A program made the translations under genes and the position numbers. Positions 15,222 through 49,415 of a stretch of DNA of 64,000 bases are shown in pieces (within the stretch, counting starts at the first letter, position 1; the number at the start of each line of letters is the position of its first letter). Origin of the DNA: Acidimicrobiales bacterium (GTDB taxonomy: Bacteria; Actinomycetota; Acidimicrobiia; Acidimicrobiales; Poriferisodalaceae); NCBI GenBank assembly GCA_963663635.2, contig CAXXMY010000017.1:91461-155460 (forward strand), given 5' to 3'. The notes beneath the pieces are model-generated. The model saw only the letters and a list, made by a program, of their open reading frames with translations, was not told the DNA's origin and made no database searches.

Positions 15222-15231
15222 GACCCGGGAT

Positions 15232-15251
15232 CGGCCCCGAAGATGGGGCCG
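15232..15251. terminator. 7-bp GC hairpin between convergent genes (candidate bidirectional terminator)
   Basis: cggcccc-gaagat-ggggccg forms a perfect stem. There is no obvious U-tract. Confidence 0.4.
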
Positions 15252-15276
15252 CTCGGCTCAGCGGTGCGTCACGCTG

Positions 15277-20116: not shown

Positions 20117-20298
20117 AGGCCGAAACAGCGAGGCCGTGGCCCAAGCAGCCCATGAGCGCAGCGAACAAGAGCGGGAGCCGCGGGGTGTCACCGCGCAGGG
20201 CCGCGCGTTTGGCACACTGGCTCAACATGCGGGTACATGTCCGAGCGGCTGCCGCCGCAGGCTCTGTGACGGCATGCCCTATCCCTGCGGTGACGCCG

Positions 20299-24237: not shown

Positions 24238-25527
24238 GTGCAGGCTCGGTCACCGCAGAGTCCGATGGTGCCTGTGCTCGTTGCCGGGAGCATCGTCACG
24301 GCTGCAACGCTCGGCGTGCGGGCCACGATGGGACTGTTCCCCGACGAGATCGACGCCACGCTGGGCGTTGGCATCGACACCGTCGGGCTGACCGTGGCCT
24401 TGCAGAATCTGATCTGGGGTCTGGGCCAGCCCATCGCCGGGGCCATCGCGGATCGGTTCGGCGCTGTTCGGGTCCTGTTCGTCGGAGCGGTGACGTACGC
24501 CGCCGGCTTGCTGGTCATGGCGACAGCTTCTGGCCCCGCGGGCCTGTATCCCGGCGGCGGGCTCGTGACGGGTCTCGGCATGTCTGCGGCCTCGTTTGCC
24601 GTCGTGCTTGCCGCAATGGGAAAGCTGATGGACCCGCAGCGACGCACGCTCGCGCTCGGGATCGCGACAGCCTTCGGATCGTTCGGCCATTTCCTGCTGG
24701 TGCCCCTCACCGGTGTGCTGATCGGCTCGCTCGGCTGGCGCACCGCGCTGGCGGTGTTGGCGATGGTGGCCGTCTCGATCGTTGCGGTGATACGACCCCT
24801 GCGCACTCCGCCCTCCGGCCCTCACAGCGGGTCCGACGCGGACACCATCGAGGCTGCACGCCACGACGAGCCGCTGCGAGCGGTGCTTGCGCGTGCGGCG
24901 CGTCACCGTGACTACGTGATACTCAACGCGGCCTTCTTCGTCTGCGGCTTCCATGTCACCTTCATCGGCGTCCACCTGCCCAAGTCCCTCACCGACGCGG
25001 GCCACAGCGCCCGGATCGCCACGCTGTCCTGGGCGTTGATCGGCCTGTTCAACATCGTGGGCGCCTTCGCTGCGGGCGTCCTCGGATCCCGAATCGACAA
25101 GAGCCGCCTGCTCAGCATCATCTATGTCTGCCGGGCCGCGGCGTTCGTGGGCTTGCTCTTGCTGCCGGCGACGCCGCTGGTGGCTCTGGGCTTCGGCGCT
25201 GTGGTCGGTCTCGTCTGGTTGGCCAGTGTCCCGCTGACCTCCGGGATCGTTCTGGGCCAATTCGGCGTGCGCAACGCCGGGACGCTGTTCGGGTTCGTCT
25301 TTCTGTGCCACCAGTTTGGGGCCTTCGCCGGATCGTACGGGGCTGGATTGCTGCGCGAGGCGACAGGCTCATACGACCTGTGGTGGTGGCTCGCCGCGCT
25401 GTTGGGAGTGGTGGCCGCGGTACTGCATTTGAGCATCTCCGACCAACTCGCGCCCCGCCCGGACGATCCTGCTCCCAAGCACGCCGGTGCCCGAATGCGA
25501 CTCCCCGGAGCTACTGCAACCGGGTGA
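24238..25527 (+). CDS. MFS transporter
   Basis: Twelve hydrophobic segments and an MFS-like loop motif (GAIADRFGAVRV). Start is GTG 24238 or ATG 24265. Confidence 0.75.
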   Translation: MQARSPQSPMVPVLVAGSIVTAATLGVRATMGLFPDEIDATLGVGIDTVGLTVALQNLIWGLGQPIAGAIADRFGAVRVLFVGAVTYAAGLLVMATASGPAGLYPGGGLVTGLGMSAASFAVVLAAMGKLMDPQRRTLALGIATAFGSFGHFLLVPLTGVLIGSLGWRTALAVLAMVAVSIVAVIRPLRTPPSGPHSGSDADTIEAARHDEPLRAVLARAARHRDYVILNAAFFVCGFHVTFIGVHLPKSLTDAGHSARIATLSWALIGLFNIVGAFAAGVLGSRIDKSRLLSIIYVCRAAAFVGLLLLPATPLVALGFGAVVGLVWLASVPLTSGIVLGQFGVRNAGTLFGFVFLCHQFGAFAGSYGAGLLREATGSYDLWWWLAALLGVVAAVLHLSISDQLAPRPDDPAPKHAGARMRLPGATATG

Positions 25528-26362
25528 CTGCGGCGTCTCGCCAGGCGATCGTGGACTCGATGGCGTTGAACGTGAACACATGCAGGCCAATGATGTTGAG
25601 CCGGTCGGCATTTGCTGCGAGCTTGTTGAGCAATGTGCTGGGGTCATAGCCGCCGGGCCGCATCAGCCGCGCGACAGCTCCACGGTTCTTGCGCAGGTAC
25701 CTCAGGGAGGCACCGATACCGAGGCGGGTGCCGATCCGCACCAGACGCGCTGGTTCGACTGCGCCAGGGATTCCGAGATGGACCGGCAGCACGAAGCCGC
25801 TGCGGCGCTCAGCAGCCAGCCAGTCCACAATCGAGCGCCCGTGGAAGCACATCTGCGTGGATGCGTGCCCTTCGATGCCTGCACTTCGCAGGATCGACTG
25901 CTTCGTGCGGAGTGCGCCATGCAGCACATCGTCTGCGATGAGGGCATGGCCTTCGGGGTAGGCGGTAACACCGATATGGGTCAACGAGTGATCGACATCG
26001 ACGAGCGATTCAAGCAGCGCGACAGCGCCGTCGAAAGGACCGGCGGGCGAGGTCACGTCGCCTCCGACAAGAAAGATCTCATTCAGGCCCAACTCAGCGA
26101 CGCGCCCCAACAGCTCTTGCAGATGCCCCCGGCTGCGGACCATGCGGGCCGCGATGTGGGGGACCGGGCGATGCCCGAGTGTGCACAGCTGCGCTGTCAG
26201 GTCCAGCGTGTCCTCGAGCGTCTTGGACGCTGAAGCTGTCACGGACACCGGAGCGGCCGCAGGCAAGTGCTGAAGCTGATCAGCGAGGTTCTTGAGAGGG
26301 ATCAGCTCCCACTGGGCTTCACTGAGGAGCCGACGCAGCGCCTCCCTGGTGCTTGCGGACAT
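25511..26362 (-). CDS. metF: 5,10-methylenetetrahydrofolate reductase
   Basis: MTHFR blocks (WELIPLK, ..HIAAR, FLVGGD, TAYPEGH, QMCF, GIPG) are conserved. The start is uncertain (ATG 26362 or ATG 26461). Confidence 0.8.
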   Translation of the reverse strand: MSASTREALRRLLSEAQWELIPLKNLADQLQHLPAAAPVSVTASASKTLEDTLDLTAQLCTLGHRPVPHIAARMVRSRGHLQELLGRVAELGLNEIFLVGGDVTSPAGPFDGAVALLESLVDVDHSLTHIGVTAYPEGHALIADDVLHGALRTKQSILRSAGIEGHASTQMCFHGRSIVDWLAAERRSGFVLPVHLGIPGAVEPARLVRIGTRLGIGASLRYLRKNRGAVARLMRPGGYDPSTLLNKLAANADRLNIIGLHVFTFNAIESTIAWRDAAVTRLQ

Positions 26363-26476
26363 CGAGGATCCGCGCCGTGAGGGCCGCACGAGTACGGCCG
26401 CGGAAACGCTCTTGGCCGCGGCAGCGCGACAGGCGCGCAAGGGGGTGAACATCAAAGCCATCGGGGCGGTTCTCGC

Positions 26477-28186
26477 TCAGCTCAGGCCGACGATCTCACC
26501 GTCGGCGTCGAGGTCGATGTGGCGGGCGGCCGGGTCACGACCGAGGCCGGGCATGGTGCGCATGTCGCCGCAGATCGGGTAGACGAAGCCGGCACCTACC
26601 GACGCACGCACCTCGCGAACCGGCAGCGTCCAGCCCGTCGGCGCACCCTTCAGCGAGGCGTCGGACGAGATGGACAGGTGCGTCTTCGCGATGCACACGG
26701 GCAAGTTTCCGAAGCCGTTGCGTTCGTAGCTGTCGAGCTCACGGTTCGCCCGGGCGGTGTAGCTCACGTCGGCGGCGCCGTACACATTCGTCGCGACGGC
26801 GTGGATCTTGTCGCGCAGCGGAATGTCATCGGGATACAGCACAGCAAAGTCCGTCGGCTCCTCTGCGGCTTCGGCCACTGCGGTGGCGAGCTCGGCTGCG
26901 CCTGCTCCGCCGTCCGCAAAATGGGTGCATCGGGCCGAGCGGGCGCCGTACTCGGCTGCGATCTCGGCGATGGCGTCCAGATCGACCCCGTGATCGCCGG
27001 GAAATTCGTTGATGGCCACAACGGGTGACACGCCATGCATCCGCACGTTCTCGAGCTGCTTGCGCAGGTTGTCGCCGCCGGCGTGGACTTCGTCGGGATT
27101 GGCCTCGAGCAGGGCCGGGGGCAAGGGTCGTCCCGCGACGATTCGATGGTTGCCCGAATGCGCCTTGAGGCCCCGCACGGTTGCCACGATGACGGCCGCG
27201 TCTGGAGAGACGCCCGAATAGCGGCACTTGATGTTGAAGAAGCGCTCGGCGCCCATGTCGGCGCCGAATCCGGCCTCGGTCAGCAGGAAATCGGACGTGT
27301 GGATGCCGATGCGATCGGCCACGATCGAGGAGTTTCCCGTGGCGATGTTTCCGAAGGGCCCCGTGTGCACGAGCGCCGGCGTGCCTTCGAGGGTCTGCAT
27401 CAGGTTCGGCTTGATGGCCTCTCGCAGCAGCACTGCCATCGAGCCGGCAGCACCGATGTCCTCGGCGGTGACCGGTTCGCCCGAGGGGGTGTAGCCCAGC
27501 ACGATGCGGCCGAGGCGGGCGCGCAGATCCTCCATCGAGGTGCACAGCGCCAGGGTCGCCATCACTTCCGACGCAGCGGTGATATCGAAACCCGACTCGC
27601 GGGGGATGCCGTCGAGCCGGCCGCCCAGACCGATCGTGATATTGCGCAGCGCTCGGTCGTTGACGTCGAGCACTCGTCGCCAGGTGATGTTGTGGATGTC
27701 CAGGCTGGGTTCGCTGCCGTGATACAGGTGCGCATCCAGCATTGCTGCACAGAGGTTGTGCGCGGCGGTCACGGCGTGCATGTCGCCGGTGAGGTGCAGG
27801 TTGAACAGGTCCATCGGCACGACCTGGCTGTAACCGCCGCCGGCTGCGCCTCCCTTGATGCCGAACGTCGGACCCATCGACGGCTGGCGGATCGCGATGG
27901 TTGCGGTCCGGCCGATGTGGGCGAATGCCTGCCCCAGACCGACCGTGGTTGTCGTTTTTCCTTCGCCGAGCGGGGTCGGCGTGATGGCCGTCACAACCAC
28001 GTACCGGCCGCGCGGGCGATCAGCCATGGCCTCGATGGCTTCGAGACCGACCTTGGCCACACCGTGTCCGTACAGCTCCAAGAATTCCGACGGGATGCCC
28101 GCGTCATCGGCAATCTCGGTGAGCGGTCGAATTGTCGCCGCAGAGGCGATCTCCAGATCGCTCGGAAATCCACTTGCCGTGGTCAT
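26477..28186 (-). CDS. fhs: formate--tetrahydrofolate ligase
   Basis: SDLEIA N-terminus, P-loop TPLGEGKTTTTVGL, length about 570 aa. ATG 28186 is preceded by AAGGGG. Confidence 0.9.
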   Translation of the reverse strand: MTTASGFPSDLEIASAATIRPLTEIADDAGIPSEFLELYGHGVAKVGLEAIEAMADRPRGRYVVVTAITPTPLGEGKTTTTVGLGQAFAHIGRTATIAIRQPSMGPTFGIKGGAAGGGYSQVVPMDLFNLHLTGDMHAVTAAHNLCAAMLDAHLYHGSEPSLDIHNITWRRVLDVNDRALRNITIGLGGRLDGIPRESGFDITAASEVMATLALCTSMEDLRARLGRIVLGYTPSGEPVTAEDIGAAGSMAVLLREAIKPNLMQTLEGTPALVHTGPFGNIATGNSSIVADRIGIHTSDFLLTEAGFGADMGAERFFNIKCRYSGVSPDAAVIVATVRGLKAHSGNHRIVAGRPLPPALLEANPDEVHAGGDNLRKQLENVRMHGVSPVVAINEFPGDHGVDLDAIAEIAAEYGARSARCTHFADGGAGAAELATAVAEAAEEPTDFAVLYPDDIPLRDKIHAVATNVYGAADVSYTARANRELDSYERNGFGNLPVCIAKTHLSISSDASLKGAPTGWTLPVREVRASVGAGFVYPICGDMRTMPGLGRDPAARHIDLDADGEIVGLS

Positions 28187-28292
28187 ACTGCGCACCCCTT
28201 GTGCCACGCTTATCGATACGGCCGTGCAGCCGGATCGTGCCCCTTCAGCGTCGATTTGATCGTGTTCCAGCGTTACCGTAACGCGCTAGTCT

Positions 28293-28315
28293 GTTCCGCT
28301 GAGCGGAACTGTTCC
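28293..28315. promoter_or_regulatory. palindromic operator candidate in the fhs / dehydrogenase divergent promoter (site 1 of 3)
   Basis: gttccgctgagcggaac (a perfect 7-3-7 inverted repeat) overlaps ggaactgttcc (5-1-5). The reverse complement matches 33738-33760 at 21 of 23 positions. Confidence 0.6.
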
Positions 28316-28420
28316 ATCATACAGAACACGGGTGGCCTGATCGGTCACCTTTGCATGCCGTACTCTGGCGGCGCCCAGAGGCGAATTTCGGTTGCATGCT
28401 TGTCTTTGGAGGGGGTTGGC

Positions 28421-30943
28421 ATGAGCGAGTTTCCTGAAAGGGCCGACTGTGTCGTCATCGGTGCCGGAATCGTTGGCAACTGCTTGGTCGGGCATCTCAG
28501 CGACCTGGGCTGGACTGACATCGTTCTGCTCGACAAGGGACCGCTGCCCAACCCGGGCGGCTCCACTGGCCATGCCTCGAACTTCATCTTCCCGATCGAT
28601 CACTCCAAGGAGATCGTCGATCTCACCGTCGAGAGCCAGCGGCAGTACGAGGCGCTCGGCCTGCAGAACACCTGCGGGGGGCTCGAGGTGGCCCGTTCGC
28701 CTGAACGTCTCGAGGAGTTCCGCCGGCGCATGACCTCGGCCAAGTGCTGGGGGATCGAGTCAGAGCTGCTCACCGTCGACGAGGTCGTCGAGATGGTGCC
28801 CTTCATCGACGCCAGCGTCATTCTGGGCGGGTTCTATACGCCCAGCGTGTCCGCAGTGGACTCCCTGGAAACGGGCACGCAAATGCGCAAGCGGGCCCAG
28901 GACGCTGGGCACCTGTCGGTGCATGCGAATACCGAGGTGCTCGACATCGAGACCGCCCCGGGGCCCAACGGGCCGCGGGTTGCCGCCGTGGTGACCGACA
29001 AGGGGCGCATCGAGTGCTCCACGGTGGCCATCGCCTGCGGCGTGTGGAGCTCCAAGCTCGCGGAGATGGCGGGGGCGACGATCCCGTTGACGCCCGCCGT
29101 GCACCAGATGGTCGATGTCGGCCCCTTCGACGTCCTGGTGGAGACCAATCAAGAGCTGGCCTATCCGATCGTTCGGGACATGGACACGTTCTGCTATGAG
29201 CGTCAATCCGCCGGTTCCATGGAAGTGGGCAGCTACGCCCACCGGCCGATCCTGCACCGCGTCACCGACATACCGTCCAACGAGGAAGCGGCGCTGAGCC
29301 CCACGGAGCTGCCGTTCACGCCCGACGACTTCGACGAACAGCTCGAACAGGCCATCGAGCTGATGGAGTTCCTGGGCGACGGCGAGATCAAATACGCCAT
29401 TAACGGTCTGCTGTCGCTCACGCCCGACGCAGCCCCGGTGCTCGGACCCACTGTCGAGGTGGAGAACCTGTGGTCAGTAGCTGCGGTCTGGGTCAAGGAG
29501 GGCCCGGGCGTCGGCCGCCTGGTCGCCGAGTGGATGACCTACGGCTACCCGCGACTGACCGACCCGCACGGCTCAGATGTGACGAGGTTCTACCGCCAGG
29601 ACCGCAACGTTCACCACATCGAAGCCCGGGCCGACGAGCACTTCAACAAGACGTACGGCATCGTGCACCCCCGTGAGCAATGGGCGAGCCGACGCAATGT
29701 GACGTGCGGTCCCGCCAAGGCTCGCACCGACGACCTCGGCGCGTTCTATTTCGAGGCTGGCGGCTGGGAACGGCCGCACTGGTATGAGTCCAACGCAGAT
29801 CTCGTGGAGCGCTACGGGATCTCGGGACGCACGCACGAATGGGACGCCCGCTGGTGGAGCCCTATCACCGAGGCCGAACACCTGCACCTGCGTGAGCACT
29901 GCGGGCTGGTGGACGTCTCGCCGTTTCAGGTCTTCGAGGTGTCCGGCCCCGGGGTCGTGCCCTACATCGAGCACATGGTGGTCAACAAGTGCGACCTGCC
30001 CGTCGGCCGTTCGATCTACACGCCCGTGCTCACGCCCGATGGCGGATTTCGATCCGACCTCACCATCGTCCGGCTCGCGCAGGACCGGTTCCGCATCGCC
30101 ACCGGTGCGTTCGACGGCGGCCGTGACGAATACTGGTTCCGGCACAACCTGCCCGGCGACGGCGTGGCGTTCGAGAACCGCACCGAGGCGCTCGCTACCT
30201 ATGGCGTGTGGGGACCCAACGCAGTCGCGTTGCTGCAAACCCTGACCGAGACGGATCTCTCACAGGAAGCGTTCGGTTACGGGCAGGTCCGCAACGTCCT
30301 GCTGTCGGGCATCCCGACGCAGATGCTGCGCATCTCCTACGTCGGCGACGCCGGATTCGAGATCTATTGCGCCACCAGCGCCGGCCTGGCGCTGTGGGAC
30401 GCAATCTCGCAGGCCGGGCGAGACTTCGAGCTGCGCCCCGTCGGCGCCGGGGTGTATGGCACCACCGGCCGTCTCGAGAAGGGCTACCGGCTCATGGGCG
30501 CCGAGCTCGAGAGCGAGTACAACCCGGTAGAGGCCGGCCTCGCACGGCCCAAGGTGAAGGCGGCCGACTTCATCGGCAAGGATGCCTACCTTGCCGCACG
30601 CGAGGCAGATCAAGCCGCGGTGCTCGTCATGCTGGCGTTCGAGAGCCTGCAGTGCGCCGATGGCTACGACCGGTTCCCGATGGGAGCAGGCAACGAGCCG
30701 GTGCTGACGCCCGCCGGAGATCGGATCACCGATTCCCACGGGCGAGTCAGCAAGTTGACCACGGCGGGCAACGCTCCGTCCGTTGGCGCCTATCTCGCGA
30801 TGGCCTACCTGCCCACTGAGCTGGCCACGGTCGGCACCGAGCTCGCAGTGATGTACCAGAACGAGCTCTATCCGGTGACAGTTGGCGCCACGGGAGCGAA
30901 CCTGGCACTGTTCGATCCGGCTGACAGCCGGATAAAGGCCTGA
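28421..30943 (+). CDS. dimethylglycine/sarcosine dehydrogenase-like FAD oxidoreductase fused to a GcvT-type folate-binding aminomethyltransferase domain
   Basis: N-terminal VVIGAGIVGN FAD motif. C-terminal GcvT-like region (SPFQVFEVSGP, YTPVLTPDGG, GDAGFEIY). 840 aa. ATG 28421 is preceded by GGAGGGGG. The first 462 codons of the 1302-aa ORF in the track are antisense to fhs. Confidence 0.85.
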   Translation: MSEFPERADCVVIGAGIVGNCLVGHLSDLGWTDIVLLDKGPLPNPGGSTGHASNFIFPIDHSKEIVDLTVESQRQYEALGLQNTCGGLEVARSPERLEEFRRRMTSAKCWGIESELLTVDEVVEMVPFIDASVILGGFYTPSVSAVDSLETGTQMRKRAQDAGHLSVHANTEVLDIETAPGPNGPRVAAVVTDKGRIECSTVAIACGVWSSKLAEMAGATIPLTPAVHQMVDVGPFDVLVETNQELAYPIVRDMDTFCYERQSAGSMEVGSYAHRPILHRVTDIPSNEEAALSPTELPFTPDDFDEQLEQAIELMEFLGDGEIKYAINGLLSLTPDAAPVLGPTVEVENLWSVAAVWVKEGPGVGRLVAEWMTYGYPRLTDPHGSDVTRFYRQDRNVHHIEARADEHFNKTYGIVHPREQWASRRNVTCGPAKARTDDLGAFYFEAGGWERPHWYESNADLVERYGISGRTHEWDARWWSPITEAEHLHLREHCGLVDVSPFQVFEVSGPGVVPYIEHMVVNKCDLPVGRSIYTPVLTPDGGFRSDLTIVRLAQDRFRIATGAFDGGRDEYWFRHNLPGDGVAFENRTEALATYGVWGPNAVALLQTLTETDLSQEAFGYGQVRNVLLSGIPTQMLRISYVGDAGFEIYCATSAGLALWDAISQAGRDFELRPVGAGVYGTTGRLEKGYRLMGAELESEYNPVEAGLARPKVKAADFIGKDAYLAAREADQAAVLVMLAFESLQCADGYDRFPMGAGNEPVLTPAGDRITDSHGRVSKLTTAGNAPSVGAYLAMAYLPTELATVGTELAVMYQNELYPVTVGATGANLALFDPADSRIKA

Positions 30944-30957
30944 ACGGGTAGGCGAGC

Positions 30958-31761
30958 ATGCGCATCCTGGTCTGCGTGAAGCGAGTCCCGTCGCCGGGAT
31001 CGCGCATCAACGTGACCGACGACGGCCAGCAGGTGGACTCCGCGCATCTCGGCTTCACCACAAGCCCGCACGAGGAATGCGCTGTCGAGGAAGCGGTGCA
31101 GCTCATCGAGCGTGTCACCGCCAGCGACAGCGACAACAACGAAGACCACGCAGTTGTGGTGCTCACGCTCGGGCCCGAAGCCGCTGGCGAGCAGCTGCGC
31201 TACGCGGCGAGCGTCGGGGCCACGGGCTTCGCGCTCGTCGAAGCGGAAGGCGGCCTGGATTGGGACCCCCAACGGACCGCGACTGCGATCACTGGCGCGG
31301 TGCGGTCACTGGAAGCCGATGAAGGCCCGTTCGACCTCATCCTGTTCGGCAATGAATCGGCCGACGGCGGCAACTTCCAGGTCGGCATCAGGGTGGCGCA
31401 TGCGCTCGGTCGTCCCATCGTGAACGGCATCAAGGGCATCGACTCGCGGCCCGACGGCGGCTTTGTCGCACGGCGAGAGACCGACGCCGGCTACGAGGTC
31501 TACGAGCTCGATGCTCCGTGCGCCCTCGGCGTCAAGGAAGGCATCAACCTGCCCCGGTATCCGACGATGAAGGGGCGGCTGGCATCGCGCAAAGCCCACA
31601 TCGCGACGCTCGACAGCGCAAGCGCGGCTGCTGCGGGCGGACAGACGCGTGTGCGGCTCCACCGACCGCCCGAACGCGCGAGCACGACCGTTGTGCTGGG
31701 CGACAGCGCAGCAGCGGCCCCCGCCGTTGTGGACCTGCTTGATGAGCTCGGTGTGCTGTGA
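30958..31761 (+). CDS. etfB: electron transfer flavoprotein subunit beta
   Basis: MRILVCVKRVP start and overall EtfB pattern. Confidence 0.9.
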   Translation: MRILVCVKRVPSPGSRINVTDDGQQVDSAHLGFTTSPHEECAVEEAVQLIERVTASDSDNNEDHAVVVLTLGPEAAGEQLRYAASVGATGFALVEAEGGLDWDPQRTATAITGAVRSLEADEGPFDLILFGNESADGGNFQVGIRVAHALGRPIVNGIKGIDSRPDGGFVARRETDAGYEVYELDAPCALGVKEGINLPRYPTMKGRLASRKAHIATLDSASAAAAGGQTRVRLHRPPERASTTVVLGDSAAAAPAVVDLLDELGVL

Positions 31762-32759
31762 CCGGTGTTGCCGTCCTCGTGGACCACGACCGAGGGACCC
31801 TCTCGGGAGGCGCCCTCGAAGCACTCACCGCTGCACGCTCGCTCGCGCAAGCGCTCGAAACGACCGTCGAAGCGGTGGTGCTCGGCGATACGGCGCTGTT
31901 CGAATCGCATGGGGCCGATCTTGTGGCCGCATGCGGCGCATACGGCGCTTCCGTCGTGCACCGTGGCATCGGTGACCTGCTCGCTGACTACGGACCCGAT
32001 GCCTGGGGCGCAGCGCTCAGTTCGTTCGTGGAGGCCGAGCGGCCTGTCGCGGTGACCTCGGTGGGCACCGACCGCGGCGCAGAGGCCATGGCACAGCTGG
32101 CCGCCCGGGCCGACCTGCCGCTGGTCGCCAACTGCGTGACGGTCACGCCCGCTGCGCAGAACTGGCAGATCACGCGCGTCCAATGGGGCGGTTCGCTGCT
32201 CGAGGACGTGACCCTCGAGGCGTCATTGCCGCTGGTGACCTTTGCGCACCATTCGGTCGAGGCTGAACCTGCCGACAATGCTGACGAGCCCACAGTGCGC
32301 GACTTCGAACCCGAACTGGGCCCCGACGCGGAACGAACGCTGGTACGCGACCGGGTGACGCTGACCGAAGGCGTGACGCTGGCGACCGCCTCAGTGGTGG
32401 TCTCGGGGGGGCGCGGCGTGGGATCAGCCGACGGTTTCGCCGCACTTGAGGAACTGGCTGAGCTGCTCGGCGGTCGCGTCGGGTGTTCGCGCGCGGTCAC
32501 CAACAACGGGTGGCGCAATCACGCCGATCAGGTGGGACAGACCGGCACCCGCATCGCGCCCGAGATCTACATAGCGTGCGGCATCTCGGGTGCCATCCAG
32601 CACTGGGTCGGCGCCATGGGCTCGAAGAACATCCTGGCGATCAACATCGATCCCGAAGCCAACATGGTCACCAAGGCCGGGTACGCGGTGATCGCGGACC
32701 TGCACAAGGTTGTGCCAGCCGTCTGCGACGAAATCAGGCGCCGCCGCGACCGCCCGTGA
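31758..32759 (+). CDS. etfA: electron transfer flavoprotein subunit alpha
   Basis: C-terminal FAD-binding block YIACGISGAIQHWVGAMGSKNILAINIDPEA. Its GTG start overlaps the etfB stop (GTGA). Confidence 0.9.
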   Translation: MTGVAVLVDHDRGTLSGGALEALTAARSLAQALETTVEAVVLGDTALFESHGADLVAACGAYGASVVHRGIGDLLADYGPDAWGAALSSFVEAERPVAVTSVGTDRGAEAMAQLAARADLPLVANCVTVTPAAQNWQITRVQWGGSLLEDVTLEASLPLVTFAHHSVEAEPADNADEPTVRDFEPELGPDAERTLVRDRVTLTEGVTLATASVVVSGGRGVGSADGFAALEELAELLGGRVGCSRAVTNNGWRNHADQVGQTGTRIAPEIYIACGISGAIQHWVGAMGSKNILAINIDPEANMVTKAGYAVIADLHKVVPAVCDEIRRRRDRP

Positions 32760-32906: not shown

Positions 32907-33662
32907 CTACGGGCGGGCCAGTGCCCGACCCGAGAGGTGGTTGGAGAGGTTTGCTGCGGCTTCGATGAGTGCGAGGCCGATGTCGTGGGTTCGGTTCGGG
33001 TCGGGAAACCGGTAGGCCGGGCCGTGGACGTGCAGTGCGGCGACGACCTCGCCGTCAGCGTCAAACACGGGTGCCGCCACCGAGTTGATACCAGGTGCGA
33101 ACTCCTCGTACACCCAGACGTAACCGGCGCTGCGAACCTGAGTCAGCCGTACTGCGAGCGCAGCGGCATCGGTCACGCTGTTCGCAGTGGTGGCCTCCAG
33201 CCCGCCGGCTACGTACTGCGCAATGACGTCTTCGGGCAAATGGGCCAGCCACACCAGTCCGGAGGGCACGAGGTGCATCGGGCAGTACTCGCCGATCCAC
33301 GAGCGCACCTGCACTTCGGATTCGTGCTCTACCTGGTCGAGGTAGTACACGGTCCGGTCCACACGAACGCTGACGCCTGCGGTCTCGGCCATCTGGTTGA
33401 CAAGGCCATGCAGGTGGGGTCGTGCCGCAACCACAAGGCCTCGCTCATCGCCAGAGGCACCCACGATGTCGATGAGTCCCGGGCCGATCCGGTAATCCCC
33501 GCCCGCGTCGTCCTGGGCCACCGCGCCGACGGCTTCCAATGACGTCAGCAGCCGCGCGACGGTGCTCTTCGGCAGGCCGACCTGATCGGCTACGTCGGTG
33601 ACGCCCTGCGGACCGACAGCCAATGCCCGCAGAACCGCAAATGCGCGACAAATCGACTGCAC
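32907..33662 (-). CDS. IclR family transcriptional regulator
   Basis: N-terminal wHTH (SICRAFAVLRAL....GVTDVADQVGLPKSTVARLLTSL) and a C-terminal IclR effector domain of about 250 aa in total length. Confidence 0.85.
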   Translation of the reverse strand: MQSICRAFAVLRALAVGPQGVTDVADQVGLPKSTVARLLTSLEAVGAVAQDDAGGDYRIGPGLIDIVGASGDERGLVVAARPHLHGLVNQMAETAGVSVRVDRTVYYLDQVEHESEVQVRSWIGEYCPMHLVPSGLVWLAHLPEDVIAQYVAGGLEATTANSVTDAAALAVRLTQVRSAGYVWVYEEFAPGINSVAAPVFDADGEVVAALHVHGPAYRFPDPNRTHDIGLALIEAAANLSNHLSGRALARP

Positions 33663-33737
33663 CGCCTCAAAGCTAGCCCTTGCGCGGTCGGCATTCGACA
33701 GAAGTGCTCTCGGTTGGTGTCTCGCGTGCCGTATTGT

Positions 33738-33760
33738 GGAACTGTTCTGCTCAGCGGAAC
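33738..33760. promoter_or_regulatory. operator candidate in the iclR / formate dehydrogenase divergent promoter (site 2 of 3)
   Basis: ggaactgttctgctcagcggaac. The preceding attgtggaactgt (33733-33745) is identical to 49286-49298. Confidence 0.6.
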
Positions 33761-33866: not shown

Positions 33867-35855
33867 ATGCCACGCCGAACCACTCGGCGGCGAGACAGCC
33901 GCAACGAAGCGCTGCCTCGGCTGGAAACGCCACTCGTACGAGACGGCGGCGTGTTGCGTCAGGCGACTTGGGCTGATGCCCTCGATCAGGCTGCAACGGG
34001 CCTCGGGGCCGCCACCCAGCAGCACGGTGCAGGCGGCGTCGGCATGTTCTCGTGCTCGAAGAGCACCAACGAGATGAACTACGCAGCCCAGAAGTTCATG
34101 CGGACGGTGCTGCGCTCCAACAACATCGACTCGTGTAATCGCACCTGACACGCTCCGTCCGTCGTCGGTCTGGCGACAGTGTTCGGTCTCGGAGGCGGGA
34201 CGTGCTCCTACCAAGAGATCACCGAGACCGATCTGGTTCTGCTGTGGGGCTCAAATGCCCGCGAAGCACACCCGATCTTCTTTCACCACCTCATGCGGGG
34301 GCTCGACCGCGGCGCCGCGATGTTCGCGATCGACCCGCGCCGAACCTCGTCGGCGGAGTTCGCCGATGTCTGGCTCGGCATCGACGTCGGCAGCGACATC
34401 GCACTGGCGAACGCCGCGGGCCGAGAGATCATCAGCGCTGGTCTGCACAATCGCGAGTTCATCGATCGGGCCACCACCGGCTTTGACGCGTATGCCGCGT
34501 CGGTAGAGGAATACACGCTTGACGAAGGCGAGCGCCGCACGGGCGTCCCCGCCGACGTCATTGCCGAGATGGCACATGCCTATGCCACCGCGCCCACAGC
34601 GCAGATCCTGTGGACACTCGGCATCACCGAGCACCACACCGCCGTGGAGAACGTGCTGTCGCTGTGCAATCTGGCTCTGCTGACCGGCCACGTGGGCCGC
34701 CGCGGCTCGGGTTTGGTGCCGCTGCGAGGTCAGAACAACGTCCAAGGCGGTGGCGACATGGGCGCGCTGCCCGACCGACTGCCCGGATTCCAATCCCTGA
34801 CGGACGCCGATGTTCGGGCGAAGTTCGAGGCCAGCTGGGGCTGCGAGCTGAATCCGGTGCCCGGCAACCACCTCACCAAGATGTTCGAGGCCATGGAGGA
34901 CGGCGAGCTGCGGGCGCTCTACGTCATCGGAGAGAACCCCGCCGACTCCGAGGCCAACGTGGCCCACGCCCGCAAGCTGCTCGAAGGCCTCGACTTCCTC
35001 GTCGTGCAGGACATCTCCTTGACGCGCACCGCACGCATGGCCGACGTGGTACTGCCCGCCGCAGCCGGCTGGTCGTCATCTGAAGGCACCGTCACCTCGT
35101 CGGAGCGACGAGTGCAGCGGGTGCGTGCTGCGGTGCCGCCCCAAGGCGACGCCCGCGACGATGTGCAGATCATCGGCGATCTGGCTCGGCGGATGGGTGC
35201 TCCGTGGCCGGCCGCGTCGGCCGCAGAGCTGTGGGAAGAACTGCGCTCGCTGTCGCCGATGCACGGTGGCATGACCTGGGAGCGGTTGGAGTCCGAGGGC
35301 GGCCTGCAATGGCCGTGCCCTGATGAGGAGCACCCGGGCACCGAGTTCCTGCACGCGTGGCTCTGGGAGCCCGACCTTGCAGGGCACGAACCCGCGCCGT
35401 TCACGCTCAACGAAGATCGGCCTCCTGCTGAGTCTCTCAGCGAGGAGTTCCCGCTTCGCCTGACAACCGGCCGTGTGCTCGACTCCTACAACACCGGTGC
35501 ACAGTCCGCCGGCTATCCCTCACCGATCAGATCGGGCACTGCCATCGAGTTGAGCCGTGCTGATGCTGCGACCTACGGAATCGCGGACGGGGATTCGGTG
35601 CGAGTCACCTCTCCTCGGGGCTCGGTGGTCATGGAGGCATCCATCACTGCCAGCGTGCGCCCAGGACTCGTGTTCACGACGTTCCATTTCCCCGAGCTCG
35701 TGGACCTGAACGTGCTGACCAACGACGTGTGGGACCCACGCAGCGGCACGGCTGAATTCAAGGCGGCTGCGGTGCGCATCGAACCGCTGTCGAGCGCGGC
35801 CAGCCAACGAACTGGCGGCGGAACGAGTGCAGCAGCAGGTGGTGGCGGTGGCTGA
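33867..35855 (+). CDS. fdhA: formate dehydrogenase catalytic (molybdopterin) subunit, C-terminal portion of a canonical FdsA/FdhA, with in-frame TGA 34146-34148 read as selenocysteine
   Basis: ORFs 33813-34148 and 34179-35855 share one frame and are separated only by the TGA. The context NNIDSCNRT-U-HAPSVVGLATVFG aligns with E. coli FdhF NNVDCCARV-U-HGPSVAGL. The downstream molybdopterin-oxidoreductase blocks are intact. ATG 33867 is preceded by GGGAGGGA. Confidence 0.8.
34161..34177 (+). promoter_or_regulatory. SECIS-like hairpin 12 nt downstream of the UGA
   Basis: GUCG-U-C GGUCU(G) G-CGAC forms a stem with a bulged U and a GGUCU apical loop. This is the same architecture as the E. coli fdhF SECIS apex (GGU-U-GC AGGUCU GCACC). 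Confidence 0.6.
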
Positions 35856-37755
35856 CCTGCGTTTCTCCGACGCCGAGCCCACTGCGACAGAACGCCGAGC
35901 AGTGATGGAGGCGCTCGAGACTGCGACCGACAACGGGATGTCCGCACAGTATTCCCCGCAGCCCGCACCGGCGCCCGGTAAGCCCACAATGGCCCAGAGC
36001 GAGATTGCGAACGGGTCGGTGTCGCCTTCAGGTGAGATGCGATCTGGCGTCGCGGCCGTTGTGGTCGTGCACCCGCGTGTGGTGCGAGGCGGAACCCGGC
36101 GGCGCAAGCGGCTGCGGCACCTGCTGTTGCCGGCGCTGCACGCCTTGCAACGGGAGGCGGGGTGGATCTCCCCAGGCGGGCTGAACTTCGTGGGACGCCA
36201 GCTTGGAGTGCCCCCGGCCGAGGCCTATGGCGTCGCAACGTTCTACGACATGTTCGCCACAGAGCAGCCCACGCATGCTGAGAGTGTCTGTCACGTGTGC
36301 GTCGACCCGATCTGCGCGCTCGCCGGTGCGAGCGATCTAGCGGAGCAATTGCGCTCGCAAGGCCGCCAAGTCCATCTCGGGCCGTGCCTGGGCCAGTGTG
36401 AGCGTGCTCCCGCCACGTTCATCCAAGGCCGCGGCGAACCTGACCGGGTGCCTGCCGATGCCAATGAGTCGAATTCGCTCGTTGCAAGCGTGACAGCGGA
36501 CGCTCCCGGCGCCCCGTCTCTGCTGCGACGCATGCTCACCGACGATGTGGGCCGGCCGCCTTCTGCTGAGAGCTTCACCATGGACGCCTACCAGCTGCGC
36601 GGCGGGGGAGAGGCCCTCACGGCGGCGCTGCGAATGGGCCCCGACGACGTCATCTCTGCGGTCACCGCTGCTGGACTCTCGGGCCGCGGGGGTGCTGCGT
36701 TCCCCACCGGCATCAAATGGCGAGCGGTTGCAGACGGCAGCGGCCCGAAGCATGTCGTGGCCAACATCGACGAATCAGAGCCTGGCACGTTCAAGGATCG
36801 GCTGTTGTGCGAACGCGATCCGCTGGCCGTGATCGAGTCGATTGCGGTCGCAGGCTTGGTGGTGGGCGCAGAGCACGGATGGATCTACATCCGGGGCGAG
36901 TACCCGCTGGCCACCCAGCGCCTCCGAGAGGCCATCACCGCCGCACGTGTGCACGGCTGGCTTGGCGACGACGCCGCAGGCTCGGGCCAGCGCTTCGACA
37001 TCGAGCTGCGCAGAGGCGCCGGCGCCTATATCTGTGGCGAGGAAACGGCCCTGTTCAACTCACTCGAAGGATTCCGGGGCGAGCCTCGCAACAAGCCTCC
37101 GTTCCCGACCACGAACGGGCTGTTCGGTCGACCGACCGTGGTCAACAATCCCGAGACGCTGCTCAATGTGTCCGAGATTCTCAGAATCGGCCCCGATGGG
37201 TATCGCAGCGTGGGAACGCAAGGCTCGCCGGGCGCGAAGCTGTTCTGCCTGTCGGGGCATATCGGCCGCCCAGGGCTGTACGAGGCGCCGTTCGGCATGC
37301 GGCTCGGCGATCTGCTGGAACTGGCCCACGGAGTGCAGGGCACGCTGCGAGCGGTGCTGCTCGGCGGTGCGGCCGGGAGCTTCGTGGGGCCAGAGGCGCT
37401 GGAGCTGCCGCTGTCGCTCGAGGACACCCGCGCTGCGGGAACGACGCTGGGCTCGGGACCGGTGATGGTGTTCAATGACAGTGCCGACATGAGCGCTGTG
37501 GTGCAGCGGTTGGCGCAGTTCTTTCGGGACGAGTCGTGCGGACAGTGCGTGCCGTGCCGTGTCGGAACGGTGCGCCAGCACGAGATCGTCACCCGCATTC
37601 GCGACAGGGGCGCCGCATCGGGGCGTGAACTCGAATTGATCTCCGACATCGCAGCCGCGATGGGAGACGCCTCGATATGCGGCCTCGGCCACACCGCAGC
37701 GTCCGCCGTGGTCTCGGCGCTGCGGCTCGGCTTGCTGGAGGATGCAACGACATGA
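35827..37755 (+). CDS. fused NuoE-like (2Fe-2S) and NuoF-like (FMN/NAD/4Fe-4S) diaphorase subunit of NAD-dependent formate dehydrogenase (FdsG-FdsB fusion)
   Basis: NuoE block: YGVATFYDMF ... CVDPIC ... GPCLGQCERAP. NuoF blocks: GLSGRGGAAFPTGIKW, ESEPGTFKDR, CGQCVPCRVG. Candidate GTG starts lie at 35827-35848 and overlap the upstream stop. Confidence 0.85.
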   Translation: MQQQVVAVADLRFSDAEPTATERRAVMEALETATDNGMSAQYSPQPAPAPGKPTMAQSEIANGSVSPSGEMRSGVAAVVVVHPRVVRGGTRRRKRLRHLLLPALHALQREAGWISPGGLNFVGRQLGVPPAEAYGVATFYDMFATEQPTHAESVCHVCVDPICALAGASDLAEQLRSQGRQVHLGPCLGQCERAPATFIQGRGEPDRVPADANESNSLVASVTADAPGAPSLLRRMLTDDVGRPPSAESFTMDAYQLRGGGEALTAALRMGPDDVISAVTAAGLSGRGGAAFPTGIKWRAVADGSGPKHVVANIDESEPGTFKDRLLCERDPLAVIESIAVAGLVVGAEHGWIYIRGEYPLATQRLREAITAARVHGWLGDDAAGSGQRFDIELRRGAGAYICGEETALFNSLEGFRGEPRNKPPFPTTNGLFGRPTVVNNPETLLNVSEILRIGPDGYRSVGTQGSPGAKLFCLSGHIGRPGLYEAPFGMRLGDLLELAHGVQGTLRAVLLGGAAGSFVGPEALELPLSLEDTRAAGTTLGSGPVMVFNDSADMSAVVQRLAQFFRDESCGQCVPCRVGTVRQHEIVTRIRDRGAASGRELELISDIAAAMGDASICGLGHTAASAVVSALRLGLLEDATT

Positions 37756-37765
37756 GCACACCCCG

Positions 37766-38710
37766 ATGAGCGAAGCAATGGCCGCGACGCCAGCCACCCA
37801 GACACCGGCCTTGGGGATTCCAGCATCAGAGTCCCCGGCCTCGGAAACCCGGGCAGTCACCTTGACCGTGGACGGTGCAGAAGTCTCGGTGCCCGCTGGG
37901 CAGACCGTGCTCGCAGCGTGCAACGCGGCGGGTGTTTCGACTCCCACGATCTGCTGGGCGCCCAATCTCACACCGGTCAACGTCTGCCGAGTGTGCGTGG
38001 TGGAGCTCGAAGGCTCCCGGACCCTGGTGCCCGCCTGCTCTCGGCCCGCAGAAGACGGCATGGCGATCAGCACGGACTCCGAACGGGTGCGCCACAGCCG
38101 CCGGATGGTGCTGGAGTTCCTCGGTTCTGCCAACGATCTCAGCCAGGCCACCGAGATCAACGACTGGTCTGCGGAGTACGGCGCCGACCCGGATCGCTAC
38201 GACATGGCTGAGCGGGTCGACGAGCCCGTGCGCGTTCAGGACGAGCTGTACATCCGGGATTACGACCGCTGCGTCCTTTGCTACAAGTGCGTCGAGGCCT
38301 GCGGTGACGACGCCCAGCACACGTTCGCGATCGCAGTGGCGGGACGCGGCTTCGGCGCCCGCATCCGCACCGAGTACGACATCGAACTTCCAGAATCGGC
38401 GTGCGTGTATTGCGGGAATTGTGTCGCTGTTTGTCCGACCGGGGCCTTGCAGTTCCGAACCGAATTCGATCTTCGAGCCGTGGGGGAGTGGCGCCCCGAT
38501 TCCCAGACCGTCACCCGCACCGTCTGCTCGTACTGCGGCGTCGGCTGCAATCTCGACCTTCACGTCCAGGACGAACGCATCGTGACGGTCACCTCGCCCG
38601 CTGACCACTCGGTTACGAGCGGCCATCTGTGCATCAAGGGGCGATTCGGATGGCAGTACGTCCACGCCCCCGCCTTCGAGCCCCCAGCGCCTGACGCAGC
38701 GGGGCAATAG
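37766..38710 (+). CDS. formate dehydrogenase alpha subunit, N-terminal Fe-S portion (2Fe-2S, 4Fe-4S ferredoxin motifs, Mo-bisPGD 4Fe-4S cap) encoded as a separate gene
   Basis: CRVCVVE, CVLCYKCVEAC, CVYCGNCVAVCPTGAL, CSYCGVGCNL and GHLCIKGRFG motifs. It ends right after GRFGWQYVH, which is where the gene at 33867 picks up (RLETPLVR). Confidence 0.8.
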   Translation: MSEAMAATPATQTPALGIPASESPASETRAVTLTVDGAEVSVPAGQTVLAACNAAGVSTPTICWAPNLTPVNVCRVCVVELEGSRTLVPACSRPAEDGMAISTDSERVRHSRRMVLEFLGSANDLSQATEINDWSAEYGADPDRYDMAERVDEPVRVQDELYIRDYDRCVLCYKCVEACGDDAQHTFAIAVAGRGFGARIRTEYDIELPESACVYCGNCVAVCPTGALQFRTEFDLRAVGEWRPDSQTVTRTVCSYCGVGCNLDLHVQDERIVTVTSPADHSVTSGHLCIKGRFGWQYVHAPAFEPPAPDAAGQ

Positions 38711-40950: not shown

Positions 40951-40987
40951 ATGCCGTGGCGCTCAAACGCCCCTGTCGGGCGATGGG

Positions 40988-43040: not shown

Positions 43041-43051
43041 CAGTGTGAGAG

Positions 43052-44593: not shown

Positions 44594-44686
44594 TCACTCA
44601 TTGGTTTGCATCGTCGTGTATTCGATCTTGTGTACCGGGTCTCGCCTGCCTTGAGACCACAACACTTGAGGCGACTTGCCTGCGCA

Positions 44687-46804: not shown

Positions 46805-46817
46805 CGCCAGGGCCTCG

Positions 46818-48472: not shown

Positions 48473-48473
48473 C

Positions 48474-49278: not shown

Positions 49279-49300
49279 GTTCCGCATTGTGGAACTGTGC
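49279..49300. promoter_or_regulatory. operator candidate upstream of the corrinoid-protein operon (site 3 of 3)
   Basis: gttccgcattgtggaactgtgc. It shares attgtggaactgt with site 2, and the downstream gcgttacggta resembles cgttaccgtaacg next to site 1. Confidence 0.5.
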
Positions 49301-49415
49301 CGCACAACGGCACAAAGCGTTACGGTATCACGAACCTCGCTCAAACGGCGACATCCCGAAGCAGCCCATTGCGCCCACGCCGGACGGGCTCAGCGCTTGC
49401 GCAACGAGGCGATCT

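Follow-up and report, generated by a model that had tools for sequence, protein, structure and literature searches.

What do the inverted repeats between fhs and a divergently transcribed dimethylglycine/sarcosine-dehydrogenase-like gene (dmgdh) stand for, and which protein reads them? The question arises in a 64-kb stretch of DNA (hereafter the window) from a sponge-associated actinobacterium, of which a preliminary description had been made. According to that description, the spacer holds nested palindromes whose core recurs in two other promoters of the cluster and marks the binding site of a common regulator, the IclR-family protein encoded nearby being the proposed binder. Here we set out what the site consists of, where else it occurs, which protein it probably serves and how that protein might act.

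The answer is a predicted double binding site of a kind already well known, a sound though rather ordinary result whose textbook mechanism will not surprise the specialist. What the operator offers is the marking, from sequence alone, of a conserved regulon in uncultured Acidimicrobiia. The linked genes together make up a complete route from N-methyl groups to CO2, and the predicted regulon includes a corrinoid-dependent MttB-family methyltransferase without an assigned substrate. The operator also yields testable predictions on autoregulation and candidate inducers, and provides a 35-bp probe for further members.

Anatomy of the predicted operator in the fhs/dmgdh spacer

Direct reading of the spacer recovers all four elements of the preliminary description where it had placed them: cgttaccgtaacg at 28271-28283, gttccgc-tga-gcggaac at 28293-28309, ggaac-t-gttcc at 28305-28315, and the outer arms cgtgttc at 28261-28267 and gaacacg at 28324-28330. 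The sequences of the nested palindromes thus stand; their anatomy does not, as the elements resolve into two adjacent boxes plus a promoter-like hexamer instead of four palindromes. Site 1 is a pair of 17-bp boxes, A and B (Table 1), with 1 bp between them and their centres 18 bp apart, which places four GTTCC/GGAAC half-sites across 35 bp. The element ggaac-t-gttcc is the seam, formed by the right half-site of box A and the left half-site of box B, and the core of the right outer arm is the right half-site of box B, the fourth of the site. Box A is kept in the fhs/dmgdh spacers of relatives when these are aligned, and 15 of the 22 non-redundant dmgdh-side spacers have box B without a single change, with diverged flanks.

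Other readings of the same elements were discarded. The outer arms do not form a long-range inverted repeat, conservation being limited to their GTTC cores: in the alignment, close relatives retain GTTC(C/G) at the position of the left core and do not retain the extended cgt...acg complementarity. The GTTCC pentamer at this place may be an auxiliary third box. That cgttaccgtaacg is the palindromic site of a second regulator was ruled out by the absence of the palindrome from all relatives, which have AGTTACTGTTCCG, AGTTACCCTTCCG or GCTACTGTTCCC at its position and retain only a TAC-N2-T core. Nor is ggaac-t-gttcc an IclR group-2 site (TGRAACAN1-2TGTTYCA), the spacing being wrong: the gap from GGAAC to GTTCC at the junction is 1 nt at all sites, and the group-2 motif requires 3-4 nt between its inward-facing GRAAC/GTTYC. 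The spacer itself is 234 nt long and not 213 nt as formerly given, because the orthologues (569 aa) favour ATG 28186 over GTG 28207 as the fhs start.

Table 1. Predicted operator boxes, promoter-like hexamers and genes of the window. Scores are from a weight matrix built on other genomes; mismatches are counted against GTTYCRYW3RYGRAAC.
Feature	Positions	Strand	Score (bits)	Mismatches	Remarks
Extra half-site-like pentamer	28264..28268				GTTCC, core of left outer arm
-10-like hexamer, site 1	28274..28279	+			TACCGT inside cgttaccgtaacg, 13 nt upstream of box A, toward dmgdh
Site 1, box A	28293..28309		21.2	1	GTTCCGCTGAGCGGAAC, perfect inverted repeat
Site 1, box B	28311..28327		22.1	2	GTTCCATCATACAGAAC
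Site 2, tandem operator	33726..33760				two boxes
Site 2, first box	33726..33742		20.6	1	
Site 2, second box	33744..33760		20.2	2	
Site 3, tandem operator	49279..49313				two boxes
Site 3, first box	49279..49295		26.9	0	
Site 3, second box	49297..49313		10.4	3	
Hexamer at iclR	33670..33675	-			TAGCTT, 7 nt upstream of iclR GTG
-10-like hexamer, site 3	49322..49327	-			TACCGT, TGA before the hexamer, 8 nt upstream of site 3
iclR	32907..33662	-			IclR-family transcription factor, Pfam HTH_IclR + IclR_C
Target operon, fhs-metF	25511..28186	-			fhs 26477-28186; metF-like 25511-26461
Target operon, dmgdh-etfBA	28421..32759	+			dimethylglycine/sarcosine-dehydrogenase-like dmgdh 28421-30943; etfB 30958-31761; etfA 31758-32759
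Probable target operon, formate dehydrogenase	33867..38710	+			alpha subunit 33867-35855, selenocysteine TGA 34146-34148; NuoE/F-like 35827-37755; NuoG-N-terminal-like Fe-S subunit 37742-38710
Genes after the formate dehydrogenase operon					MFS 38732-40099; EamA 40126-40950
Target operon, corrinoid/MttB	43052..49202	-			MtgC-like corrinoid protein 48474-49202; DUF1638 47750-48472; methyl-THF:corrinoid methyltransferase 46818-47882; RamA-like activase 44687-46864; non-Pyl MttB-family methyltransferase 43052-44593

Recurrence in the window and in other genomes

Read as its reverse complement, 28293-28315 matches 33738-33760 at all but 2 of 23 positions, and the match continues into the flank, both as claimed before, the whole common unit being 35 bp long. 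A search with the degenerate 23-mer GGAACWGTTCYGCTCAGCGGAAC, allowing up to three mismatches, found it at only two places in the 64 kb and nowhere in 100 shuffles, which bears out the view that such similarity goes beyond chance. Of the two other promoters announced in the heading of the preliminary description its text had given just one, and the second has now been located as site 3, upstream of the minus-strand corrinoid-protein/MttB methyltransferase operon. Site 2 sits between iclR and the selenocysteine formate dehydrogenase operon, 63 nt upstream of the iclR start. The centres of the paired boxes are 18 nt apart at all three sites, and the distal box of site 3 is weak. A weight matrix made from 41 boxes, all from other genomes, which gives GTTCC-R-Y-(A/T-rich)3-R-Y-GGAAC, finds in the window, at 10 bits or more, exactly the six boxes of the three sites, five of them at 20-27 bits; the next-best match reaches 8.6 bits at 53109, within an SNF2-like ORF (51034-54966). 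The same matrix detects no further site, down to 8 bits, ahead of the serA-like gene (19981-21513) or of the window's MFS genes.

Alignments of 19 fhs/dmgdh and 17 iclR-upstream spacers, many of them from closely related genomes and not independent, show the operator as a conserved island of 35 bp between diverged flanks. Among related Acidimicrobiia, including Ca. Poriferisodalis, it stands before iclR, fhs-metF, dmgdh-etfBA, corrinoid or mttB genes. Its upstream distance to the iclR start is 53 or 63 nt in all but one of 17 non-redundant spacers, the exception, at 16 nt, coming from an outlier with 54% identity (L105); the distance to dmgdh is 34-122 nt in 22 non-redundant spacers, the window included, and that to the fhs start 27-134 nt in relatives, also where dmgdh is not adjacent (L040, L097, L008). 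The operator tracks the iclR orthologue and its neighbour genes down to 57% protein identity: distant genomes (57-64% IclR identity; L006-L008) retain boxes before iclR, fhs or dmgdh. It is absent from the fhs/dmgdh spacer of L004. Tandem operators precede corrinoid-protein homologues in L038 and L100, and in Ilumatobacter-type genomes the operator is found about 120 nt upstream of mttB. When 75 metagenome corrinoid loci were scored, the 300 nt upstream contained a box of 12 bits or more in 15 of them, and in 13 of these 15 the arrangement was tandem at 18 nt; the background rate is 2 boxes per 188 kb.

The preliminary description had also named a genome-wide search as the check on whether the motif is a generic repeat. 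Scanning the genomes of 185,579 species with a 28-nt pattern that leaves the fourth half-site, RYRGNAC, free returned at least 123 matches in at least 118 stretches. Among the matches listed, 51 have a homologue of iclR, fhs, dmgdh, mttB, a corrinoid gene or metF no more than 400 nt away, and 43 of these 51 also carry the free fourth half-site. The other 72 matches listed include 12 with the fourth half-site, on contigs that nearly all bear an Acidimicrobiia label, fhs/metF being close by in some; a Microthrix label and a Flavobacteriales label (this contig probably misbinned) occur once each. The remaining 60 matches listed come from assorted phyla, lack the fourth half-site and look like chance. 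In complete chromosomes of relatives (e.g. NZ_OZ244925.1, NZ_OZ242344.1, NZ_OZ241975.1) the matches listed comprise only the iclR and fhs/dmgdh sites. Because the operator is thus essentially confined, among the matches listed, to this gene set in Acidimicrobiia, it is not a generic repeat. Long ORFs beside some extra operator matches (L030, L084, L091, L014 downstream) are likely to be high-GC artefacts and were excluded.

Relation to known IclR-family operators

The boxes are of a published kind. Group 1 of the IclR-family sites, in its GTT-11-AAC subgroup, has the consensus GTTYCRYW3RYGRAAC (Suvorova & Gelfand 2021, PMC8222616); this motif is used by 54 IclR orthologous groups, and tandem sites with 18-22 nt between centres, ascribed to tetramer binding, occur in 94 orthologous groups (PMC8222616). 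Our weight matrix of 41 boxes reproduces the published consensus, from which the six boxes of the window depart at none to three positions (Table 1). All three window sites fall within the tandem range at 18 nt; the orthologous sites chosen by the search pattern have this spacing by construction, and a check that does not depend on the pattern comes from the metagenome sites upstream of corrinoid genes, 13 of 15 of which, located with the weight matrix, are tandem at this spacing. The presumed cognate iclR gene is nearby and has a site in its own upstream region.

The likeness to the sites of PMC8222616 extends to the odd-length 17-bp palindrome, the GTTYC half-site, the R-Y step followed by a W3 centre, and the tandem placement upstream of the regulator's own gene and of neighbouring operons. 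There are also differences. The spacing is at the short end of a tandem class that has mainly 19-21 nt, and the distal boxes of the Poriferisodalis lineage have a GC-richer centre (CTGAG) in place of W3. The set of genes, namely corrinoid/MttB methyltransferase, DMGDH-ETF, fhs-metF and selenocysteine formate dehydrogenase, is unlike those described there, and the main text of PMC8222616 does not name Acidimicrobiia, the taxon of the MAGs considered here. One run of consecutive entries in its Supplementary Table 3 gives FolD, PurU, SoxD/G, MetF, FTHFS, FolC and FixA/B as regulated COGs and, to the extent of these entries, a related C1 regulog may already be catalogued in that table.

The nearest solved structure to the window protein is that of TtgV of Pseudomonas putida (2xrn, and 2xro with the same sequence; E 1.5e-20 over residues 2-197), an IclR-family repressor; the sequence relationship is distant, and TtgV regulates an efflux pump, with aromatic compounds as its signals. 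To our knowledge, the TtgV operator is not of the GTTCC-N7-GGAAC type. The layout (A/G)TTCC-N7-GGAA(T/C) is shared with two actinobacterial IclR-type regulators, GenR of Corynebacterium glutamicum (ATTCC-N7(5)-GGAAT) and NpdR of Rhodococcus (GTTCMRYATMRTGAWS) (Table 1 of PMC8222616), which, unlike the window regulon, control the catabolism of aromatic compounds. BhcR, regulator of the beta-hydroxyaspartate cycle, belongs to the same family and is the top NCBIfam match of the window protein, although its regulated genes are unrelated; all best NCBIfam matches are under the cut-off, and as the BhcR model (NF045644) gives 147.2 bits where its cut-off is 350, the protein is no BhcR orthologue. The three-box operators of PcaU, PobR and HmgR combine a palindrome with an external direct-repeat half-site, of which the GTTCC-like pentamers upstream of box A, at 28264-28268 and 28279-28283, are reminiscent. 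Both are partly conserved, the second being GTAAC in the window and GTTCC in relatives. Unlike in those operators, they are irregularly spaced, at 15 and 14 nt, and share their stretch with the conserved TAnnnT hexamer, so that the region also fits a promoter -10 element.

The probable binding protein, its possible mode of action and the alternatives

The tandem site is very probably the operator of the IclR protein of the window. The earlier suggestion of a common regulator, probably this predicted binder, is supported by the fit to the consensus, the site before iclR itself and the co-occurrence of operator and gene; as the group-1 motif is common to many IclR paralogues, the assignment to this particular protein rests on co-localisation and the own-gene site. 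By analogy with the family, one IclR dimer would sit on each box, making a tetramer per operator, as for TtgV, a tetramer of which occupies its long operator (PMC8222616 citing Lu et al. 2010), and IclR would also control its own gene. It is improbable that the boxes are bound by some other regulator, be it an IclR paralogue encoded at another place or a factor unrelated to the family, with iclR merely one of its targets. A motif common to 54 IclR orthologous groups does not by itself identify its protein (PMC8222616). Next to the corrinoid operon, moreover, Ilumatobacter-type loci encode a second IclR paralogue, of 42% identity, and a GntR gene lies between dmgdh and fhs in L008. Set against this, the operator precedes this iclR orthologue in the 17 non-redundant spacers, moves with it in rearranged gene orders (L006-L008) and co-varies with it in presence; the recognition helix LPKSTVARLL, invariant in orthologues down to 57% identity, is invariant wherever the motif is; and the boxes, as far as we know the GntR consensus, do not resemble a GntR site. 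Readings that dispense with a regulator fare worse. The half-site is a short pentamer and the pattern has many chance matches in other phyla, yet we give next to no credence to coincidence or to a dispersed repeat of the REP/MITE kind, for those other-phyla matches listed lack the fourth half-site, the shuffles failed to reproduce the match, and the window has just three sites, all in promoter spacers of functionally linked operons. It is also highly improbable that the palindromes work as nucleic-acid structure, as an RNA hairpin, attenuator or riboswitch in 5' leaders or as a DNA cruciform. Box A could indeed form a perfect 7-bp GC-rich stem with a 3-nt loop, and the predicted fold of 28255-28335 pairs all the noted arms at -25.4 kcal/mol, but this fold is unremarkable (z = -1.55; 11 of 200 shuffles fold as well), the whole window has no Rfam match at the gathering threshold, and no terminator-like sites were found at the three sites. 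Only 9 of 56 distinct boxes are perfect palindromes, and the pairs 5/13, 6/12 and 7/11 are broken in 18, 24 and 19 of the 56, without compensation. The variation follows the R/Y pattern of each half-site, so that half-site sequence is conserved and pairing is not, and the element is present in both orientations relative to its target genes.

As to the mode of control, a sigma-70 consensus promoter scan returned nothing at any of the three sites, and the choice between repressor and activator therefore rests on TAnnnT hexamers only. TAnnnT is the usual form of the actinobacterial -10 element. Of the 22 non-redundant dmgdh-side spacers, 20 contain such a hexamer with its first base 8 to 19 nt before the operator, 14 of them at -19; in the window, an 11-mer that includes TACCGT, TACCGTAACGC, is common to sites 1 and 3 only and was not found in relatives. 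With a -10-like hexamer 8-13 nt upstream (1-13 nt in relatives), the operator would extend from about the transcription start to about +40. On these grounds we lean slightly towards repression: IclR would repress the dmgdh and corrinoid promoters, and a small-molecule effector would relieve the repression, the candidates being a methylated amine (glycine betaine, dimethylglycine, sarcosine), formate or a folate species. The iclR promoter is arranged differently, for in 16 of 17 non-redundant spacers TAnnnT stands 7 nt ahead of the start codon. Its position predicts a leaderless iclR mRNA, and the operator lies about 54-88 nt (64-98 in the window) upstream of this predicted start, which puts it near -54 to -88 and further upstream than any -35 element; the mode of control at this promoter is uncertain. 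On the same operator the same protein might instead act as an activator, or as a dual regulator, that recruits RNA polymerase from upstream at some promoters, which we hold to be rather unlikely overall. PcaU, PobR and GenR recruit RNA polymerase from an upstream position, and activators are part of the IclR family. The 53 or 63 nt between operator and iclR start would suit this arrangement, as would the fact that the spacing varies between lineages by exactly 10 bp, one helical turn, so that a bound protein would stay on the same side of the helix with respect to the promoter. By contrast, dmgdh and the corrinoid operon have the conserved -10-like hexamer upstream of the operator and not downstream, and in some relatives the gap from the operator to the dmgdh start codon is just 34-39 nt, which leaves little space for a full promoter between the two.

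The proposed regulon

Since the operator is shared by three promoters, one protein would co-ordinate all three gene sets of the window. The route that they would serve begins with the removal of N-methyl groups, followed by their transfer to tetrahydrofolate, oxidation to formate and oxidation of formate to CO2. All close relatives have the formate dehydrogenase gene on the other side of site 2 from iclR, in divergent orientation.

More tentatively, and as a possibility that we would not yet call probable, we speculate that IclR is the master regulator of an undescribed, class-wide "methyl-group oxidation" regulon in Acidimicrobiia, including the Ca. Poriferisodalis sponge symbionts. It would comprise four modules: a non-pyrrolysine MttB/corrinoid quaternary-amine demethylase, DMGDH-ETF, a folate C1 branch (fhs and metF, with folC and serA in other lineages) and the selenocysteine formate dehydrogenase. 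The effector would then be a metabolite of the C1 pool, such as a folate species or formate, and not the growth substrate. Literature searches found no papers on Poriferisodalis, on IclR-MttB-glycine betaine, on IclR-DMGDH-FTHFS or on MttB in sponge Acidimicrobiia. If the class-wide regulon is real, it would give, from genome data, a handle on the substrate of the MttB-family protein and on the use of methylated amines in uncultured symbionts.

The operator in other lineages also precedes serA-like genes, a DUF1015 gene and an ORF that we take to be folC-like.

Architecture of the proposed operator

Three intergenic regions of the cluster have in common a 35-bp unit, recovered by aligning sites 1, 2 and 3, that consists of two 17-bp palindromic boxes with one base between them and centres 18 bp apart, so that each unit carries four GTTCC/GGAAC half-sites. 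When the window sequence was re-read, every element that the preliminary description had listed between fhs and the dehydrogenase gene was found in place, and, as had been claimed, 28293-28315 in reverse complement matches 33738-33760 with 2 mismatches in 23 positions. The nested arrangement proposed for these elements is replaced here by two adjacent boxes: box A of site 1 accounts for the perfect inverted repeat, the ggaac-t-gttcc element is the seam between the right half-site of box A and the left half-site of box B, and the right "outer arm", gaacacg, is the right half-site of box B plus three bases; the left arm contains one more GTTCC pentamer (28264-28268).

A degenerate form of the 23-mer, with up to three mismatches allowed, occurs at two places only in the 64-kb window (28293-28315 and 33738-33760), and none of 100 dinucleotide-preserving shuffles contains a match. 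Site 3 was found by a relaxed search of the window and is presumably the second of the two other promoters to which the heading of the preliminary description referred.

Predicted operators and neighbouring genes in the window
Feature	Position	Strand	Content
Site 1, toward dmgdh	28293-28327		box A GTTCCGCTGAGCGGAAC (28293-28309), gap T, box B GTTCCATCATACAGAAC (28311-28327)
Site 2, toward iclR	33726-33760		box A GTTCCGCTGAGCAGAAC, gap A, box B GTTCCACAATACGGCAC
Site 3, toward corrinoid gene	49279-49313		box A GTGCCGTTGTGCGGCAC, gap A, box B GTTCCACAATGCGGAAC
fhs, left of site 1	26477-28186	minus	followed by a metF-like gene
dmgdh, right of site 1	28421-30943		DAO/FAO_M/GCV_T protein, dimethylglycine/sarcosine-dehydrogenase type; then etfB, etfA
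iclR, flanking site 2	32907-33662	minus	IclR-family regulator
Formate dehydrogenase alpha, other side of site 2	33867-35855
Operon downstream of site 3			MtgC-like corrinoid protein, DUF1638, methyl-THF:corrinoid methyltransferase, RamA-like reductive activase, MttB-family methyltransferase

Fit to the IclR family

Suvorova and Gelfand distinguished two types of IclR-family motif, with a "GTT-11-AAC" subgroup of group 1 that has the consensus GTTYCRYW3RYGRAAC in 54 orthologous groups, and reported, for 94 groups, sites in tandem at distances of 18-22 nt, an arrangement that they attributed to tetramer binding (PMC8222616). The six boxes of the window depart from the published consensus by zero to three mismatches, and the weight matrix to which other genomes contributed 41 boxes reads G-T-T-C-C-R-Y-(A/T-rich)3-R-Y-G-G-A-A-C. 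The nearest solved homologue of the window's IclR protein is TtgV, for which the same survey cites tetramer binding (PMC8222616); the protein's HTH recognition helix, LPKSTVARLL, does not vary among homologues that range from 100% to 57% identity. There is good support for the proposal that the sites are a common IclR operator, and binding by the regulator is predicted from sequence. The operator is a further case of a well-described kind, and the supplement of the survey may already list a related C1 regulog (PMC8222616). As a group-2 site, the ggaac-t-gttcc junction is a misfit, because that motif requires 3-4 nt between half-sites (PMC8222616).

Conservation and distribution

Gene order is the same in four other genomes with IclR homologues 75-87% identical, and at 57-64% identity the clusters are rearranged but related. 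In close relatives the 35-bp unit forms a near-identical island within spacers that have elsewhere diverged with indels; distant relatives keep boxes of the form GTTCCRCAWYGYGGAAC, single or tandem, upstream of iclR, fhs or dmgdh, and Ilumatobacter-type genomes have the same operator about 120 nt upstream of mttB. The relative L004 (IclR identity 75%) still has the operator in front of iclR, but no box could be recognised in its fhs/dmgdh spacer (15185-15411), where the site may have diverged strongly or regulon loss may have occurred. In L002, the deposited 306-aa IclR protein (P0004, 10001-10921) has a 55-residue N-terminal extension that is translated operator and spacer (…LFHRAEQFHNTVQ…); judged by that reading, its annotated start is almost certainly wrong.

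Occurrence at many unrelated loci had been named as the mark of a generic repeat, which would have spoken against a common regulator site. The pattern GTTCC-N7-RGAAC-N-GTTCCA-NN-AT, which leaves the fourth half-site free, was scanned against one genome for each of 185,579 species and gave at least 123 matches in at least 118 stretches. Of the 123 matches listed, 51 have a homologue of iclR, fhs, dmgdh, mttB, the corrinoid protein gene or metF no more than 400 nt away, and 43 of these 51 read RYRGNAC at the free half-site, a heptamer with a chance frequency of 1/512 by our own calculation. Twelve of the other 72 listed matches also read RYRGNAC, almost all from Acidimicrobiia-type contigs, several of which place the match beside serA-like genes, a folC-like ORF, DUF1015 or dmgdh genes; the remaining 60, from many phyla, are without it. 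A sample independent of the scan pattern comprised 75 metagenome loci with a corrinoid protein 70-84% identical: in 15 of them a box scoring 12 bits or more stands in the 300 nt upstream, and 13 of the 15 are tandem with a spacing of exactly 18 nt, against a background of 2 boxes per 188 kb of the same loci.

Because of this comparative evidence from conservation, scan and corrinoid loci, a generic repeat is excluded among the matches listed, as is chance similarity, which the shuffles also contradict. That the palindromes serve as RNA or DNA structure is unlikely, given that there is no Rfam match, that the fold z-score is -1.55, and that perfect palindromes make up only 9 of 56 boxes, with broken inner pairs left uncompensated. 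Binding by a different IclR paralogue is disfavoured by the consistent position of the site upstream of this iclR gene. Two Ilumatobacter-type loci (L039, 24-755; L120, 6561-7295) have, in addition, an IclR paralogue that shares 42% identity with the window protein and is divergent from the corrinoid operon; there the tandem operator lies between ramA and mttB, and either paralogue is a candidate binder.

In more distant Acidimicrobiia (L044, L052, L053, L081, L108, L117) the same tandem operator precedes a serA-like gene (2-Hacid_dh + ACT), with a divergent ORF in L053, L081 and L108 that is folC-like by sequence reading but has no Pfam match; in L074 and L084 it stands before a DUF1015 gene. 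No box reaching 8 bits was found upstream of the serA-like gene of the window itself (19981-21513). L055, binned as Flavobacteriales, holds two operators (4527-4561 and 6657-6691) that account for three pattern matches, one operator matching on both strands, and is probably a misbinned Acidimicrobiia contig.

Promoter geometry

The additional palindrome cgttaccgtaacg of the preliminary description is not conserved: relatives read AGTTACTGTTCCG, AGTTACCCTTCCG or GCTACTGTTCCC there, and the 13-mer has no other occurrence in the fetched sequence. The conserved part of the region is a hexamer TAnnnT (TACCGT at 28274-28279), the usual actinobacterial -10 form; 20 of 22 non-redundant dmgdh-side spacers have one that begins 8-19 nt ahead of the operator, and at site 3 TACCGT, there following TGA, likewise stands 8 nt before the operator. 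A generic sigma-70 scan returned nothing at sites 1, 2 and 3. If the hexamers are promoters, the operator would lie over about +1 to +40, the geometry of a repressor. Only the TAnnnT core is accounted for in the 11-mer TACCGTAACGC, which occurs in this genome's sites 1 and 3 only (28274-28284 and 49317-49327), and not its remaining common bases; it lies 8 nt from the operator at site 1 and 3 nt at site 3.

In 16 of 17 spacers TAnnnT stands 7 nt before the iclR GTG, which predicts a leaderless mRNA and would thus put the operator at about -54 to -88, a geometry ambiguous between repression and activation. Most relatives have 53 nt between the operator and the iclR start; the window (33663-33725), L001 and L090 have exactly 63 nt. 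This insertion of 10 bp, one helical turn, would leave the operator on an unchanged face of the helix with respect to the promoter of the predicted leaderless mRNA.

Gene context and pathway

The window genome is high-GC and of Gram-positive type, with CWB2 cell-wall-binding domains, and it is closest to Acidimicrobiia MAGs, of which many carry the label Candidatus Poriferisodalis. The interest of the operator is that it marks out a regulon in uncultured sponge-associated Acidimicrobiia and gives a handle on an MttB-family enzyme and its substrate; the ORF of this enzyme is uninterrupted (non-pyrrolysine). From the family names we infer a route from N-methyl groups through methyl-THF, formyl-THF and formate to CO2. 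A complete corrinoid methyltransferase system (43052-49202, minus strand) is present in a genome that also has an ETF-linked DMGDH.

An in-frame TGA (34146-34148) within the motif CNRT-U-HAPSV makes it very probable that the alpha subunit of the formate dehydrogenase is a selenoprotein. In most of the relatives examined gene callers break it at this point, giving pieces of about 81-103 aa and about 544-577 aa; in L008 it is called as a single 632-aa product. The NuoG-like Fe-S domain of the subunit's N terminus is encoded apart from it, by the third gene downstream (37742-38710).

Large CWB2 proteins are encoded at 40963-43173, 16677-19724 and 21646-23469, two of the three also with PD40 beta-propeller repeats. 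The first is inserted between EamA and mttB, a position from which it is absent in L001, L002, L004 and L005; L002 has two small unrelated ORFs there, and L005 has a different CWB2 gene (11094-13376) inserted between iclR and etfA. CWB2 genes seem to move into and out of the cluster.
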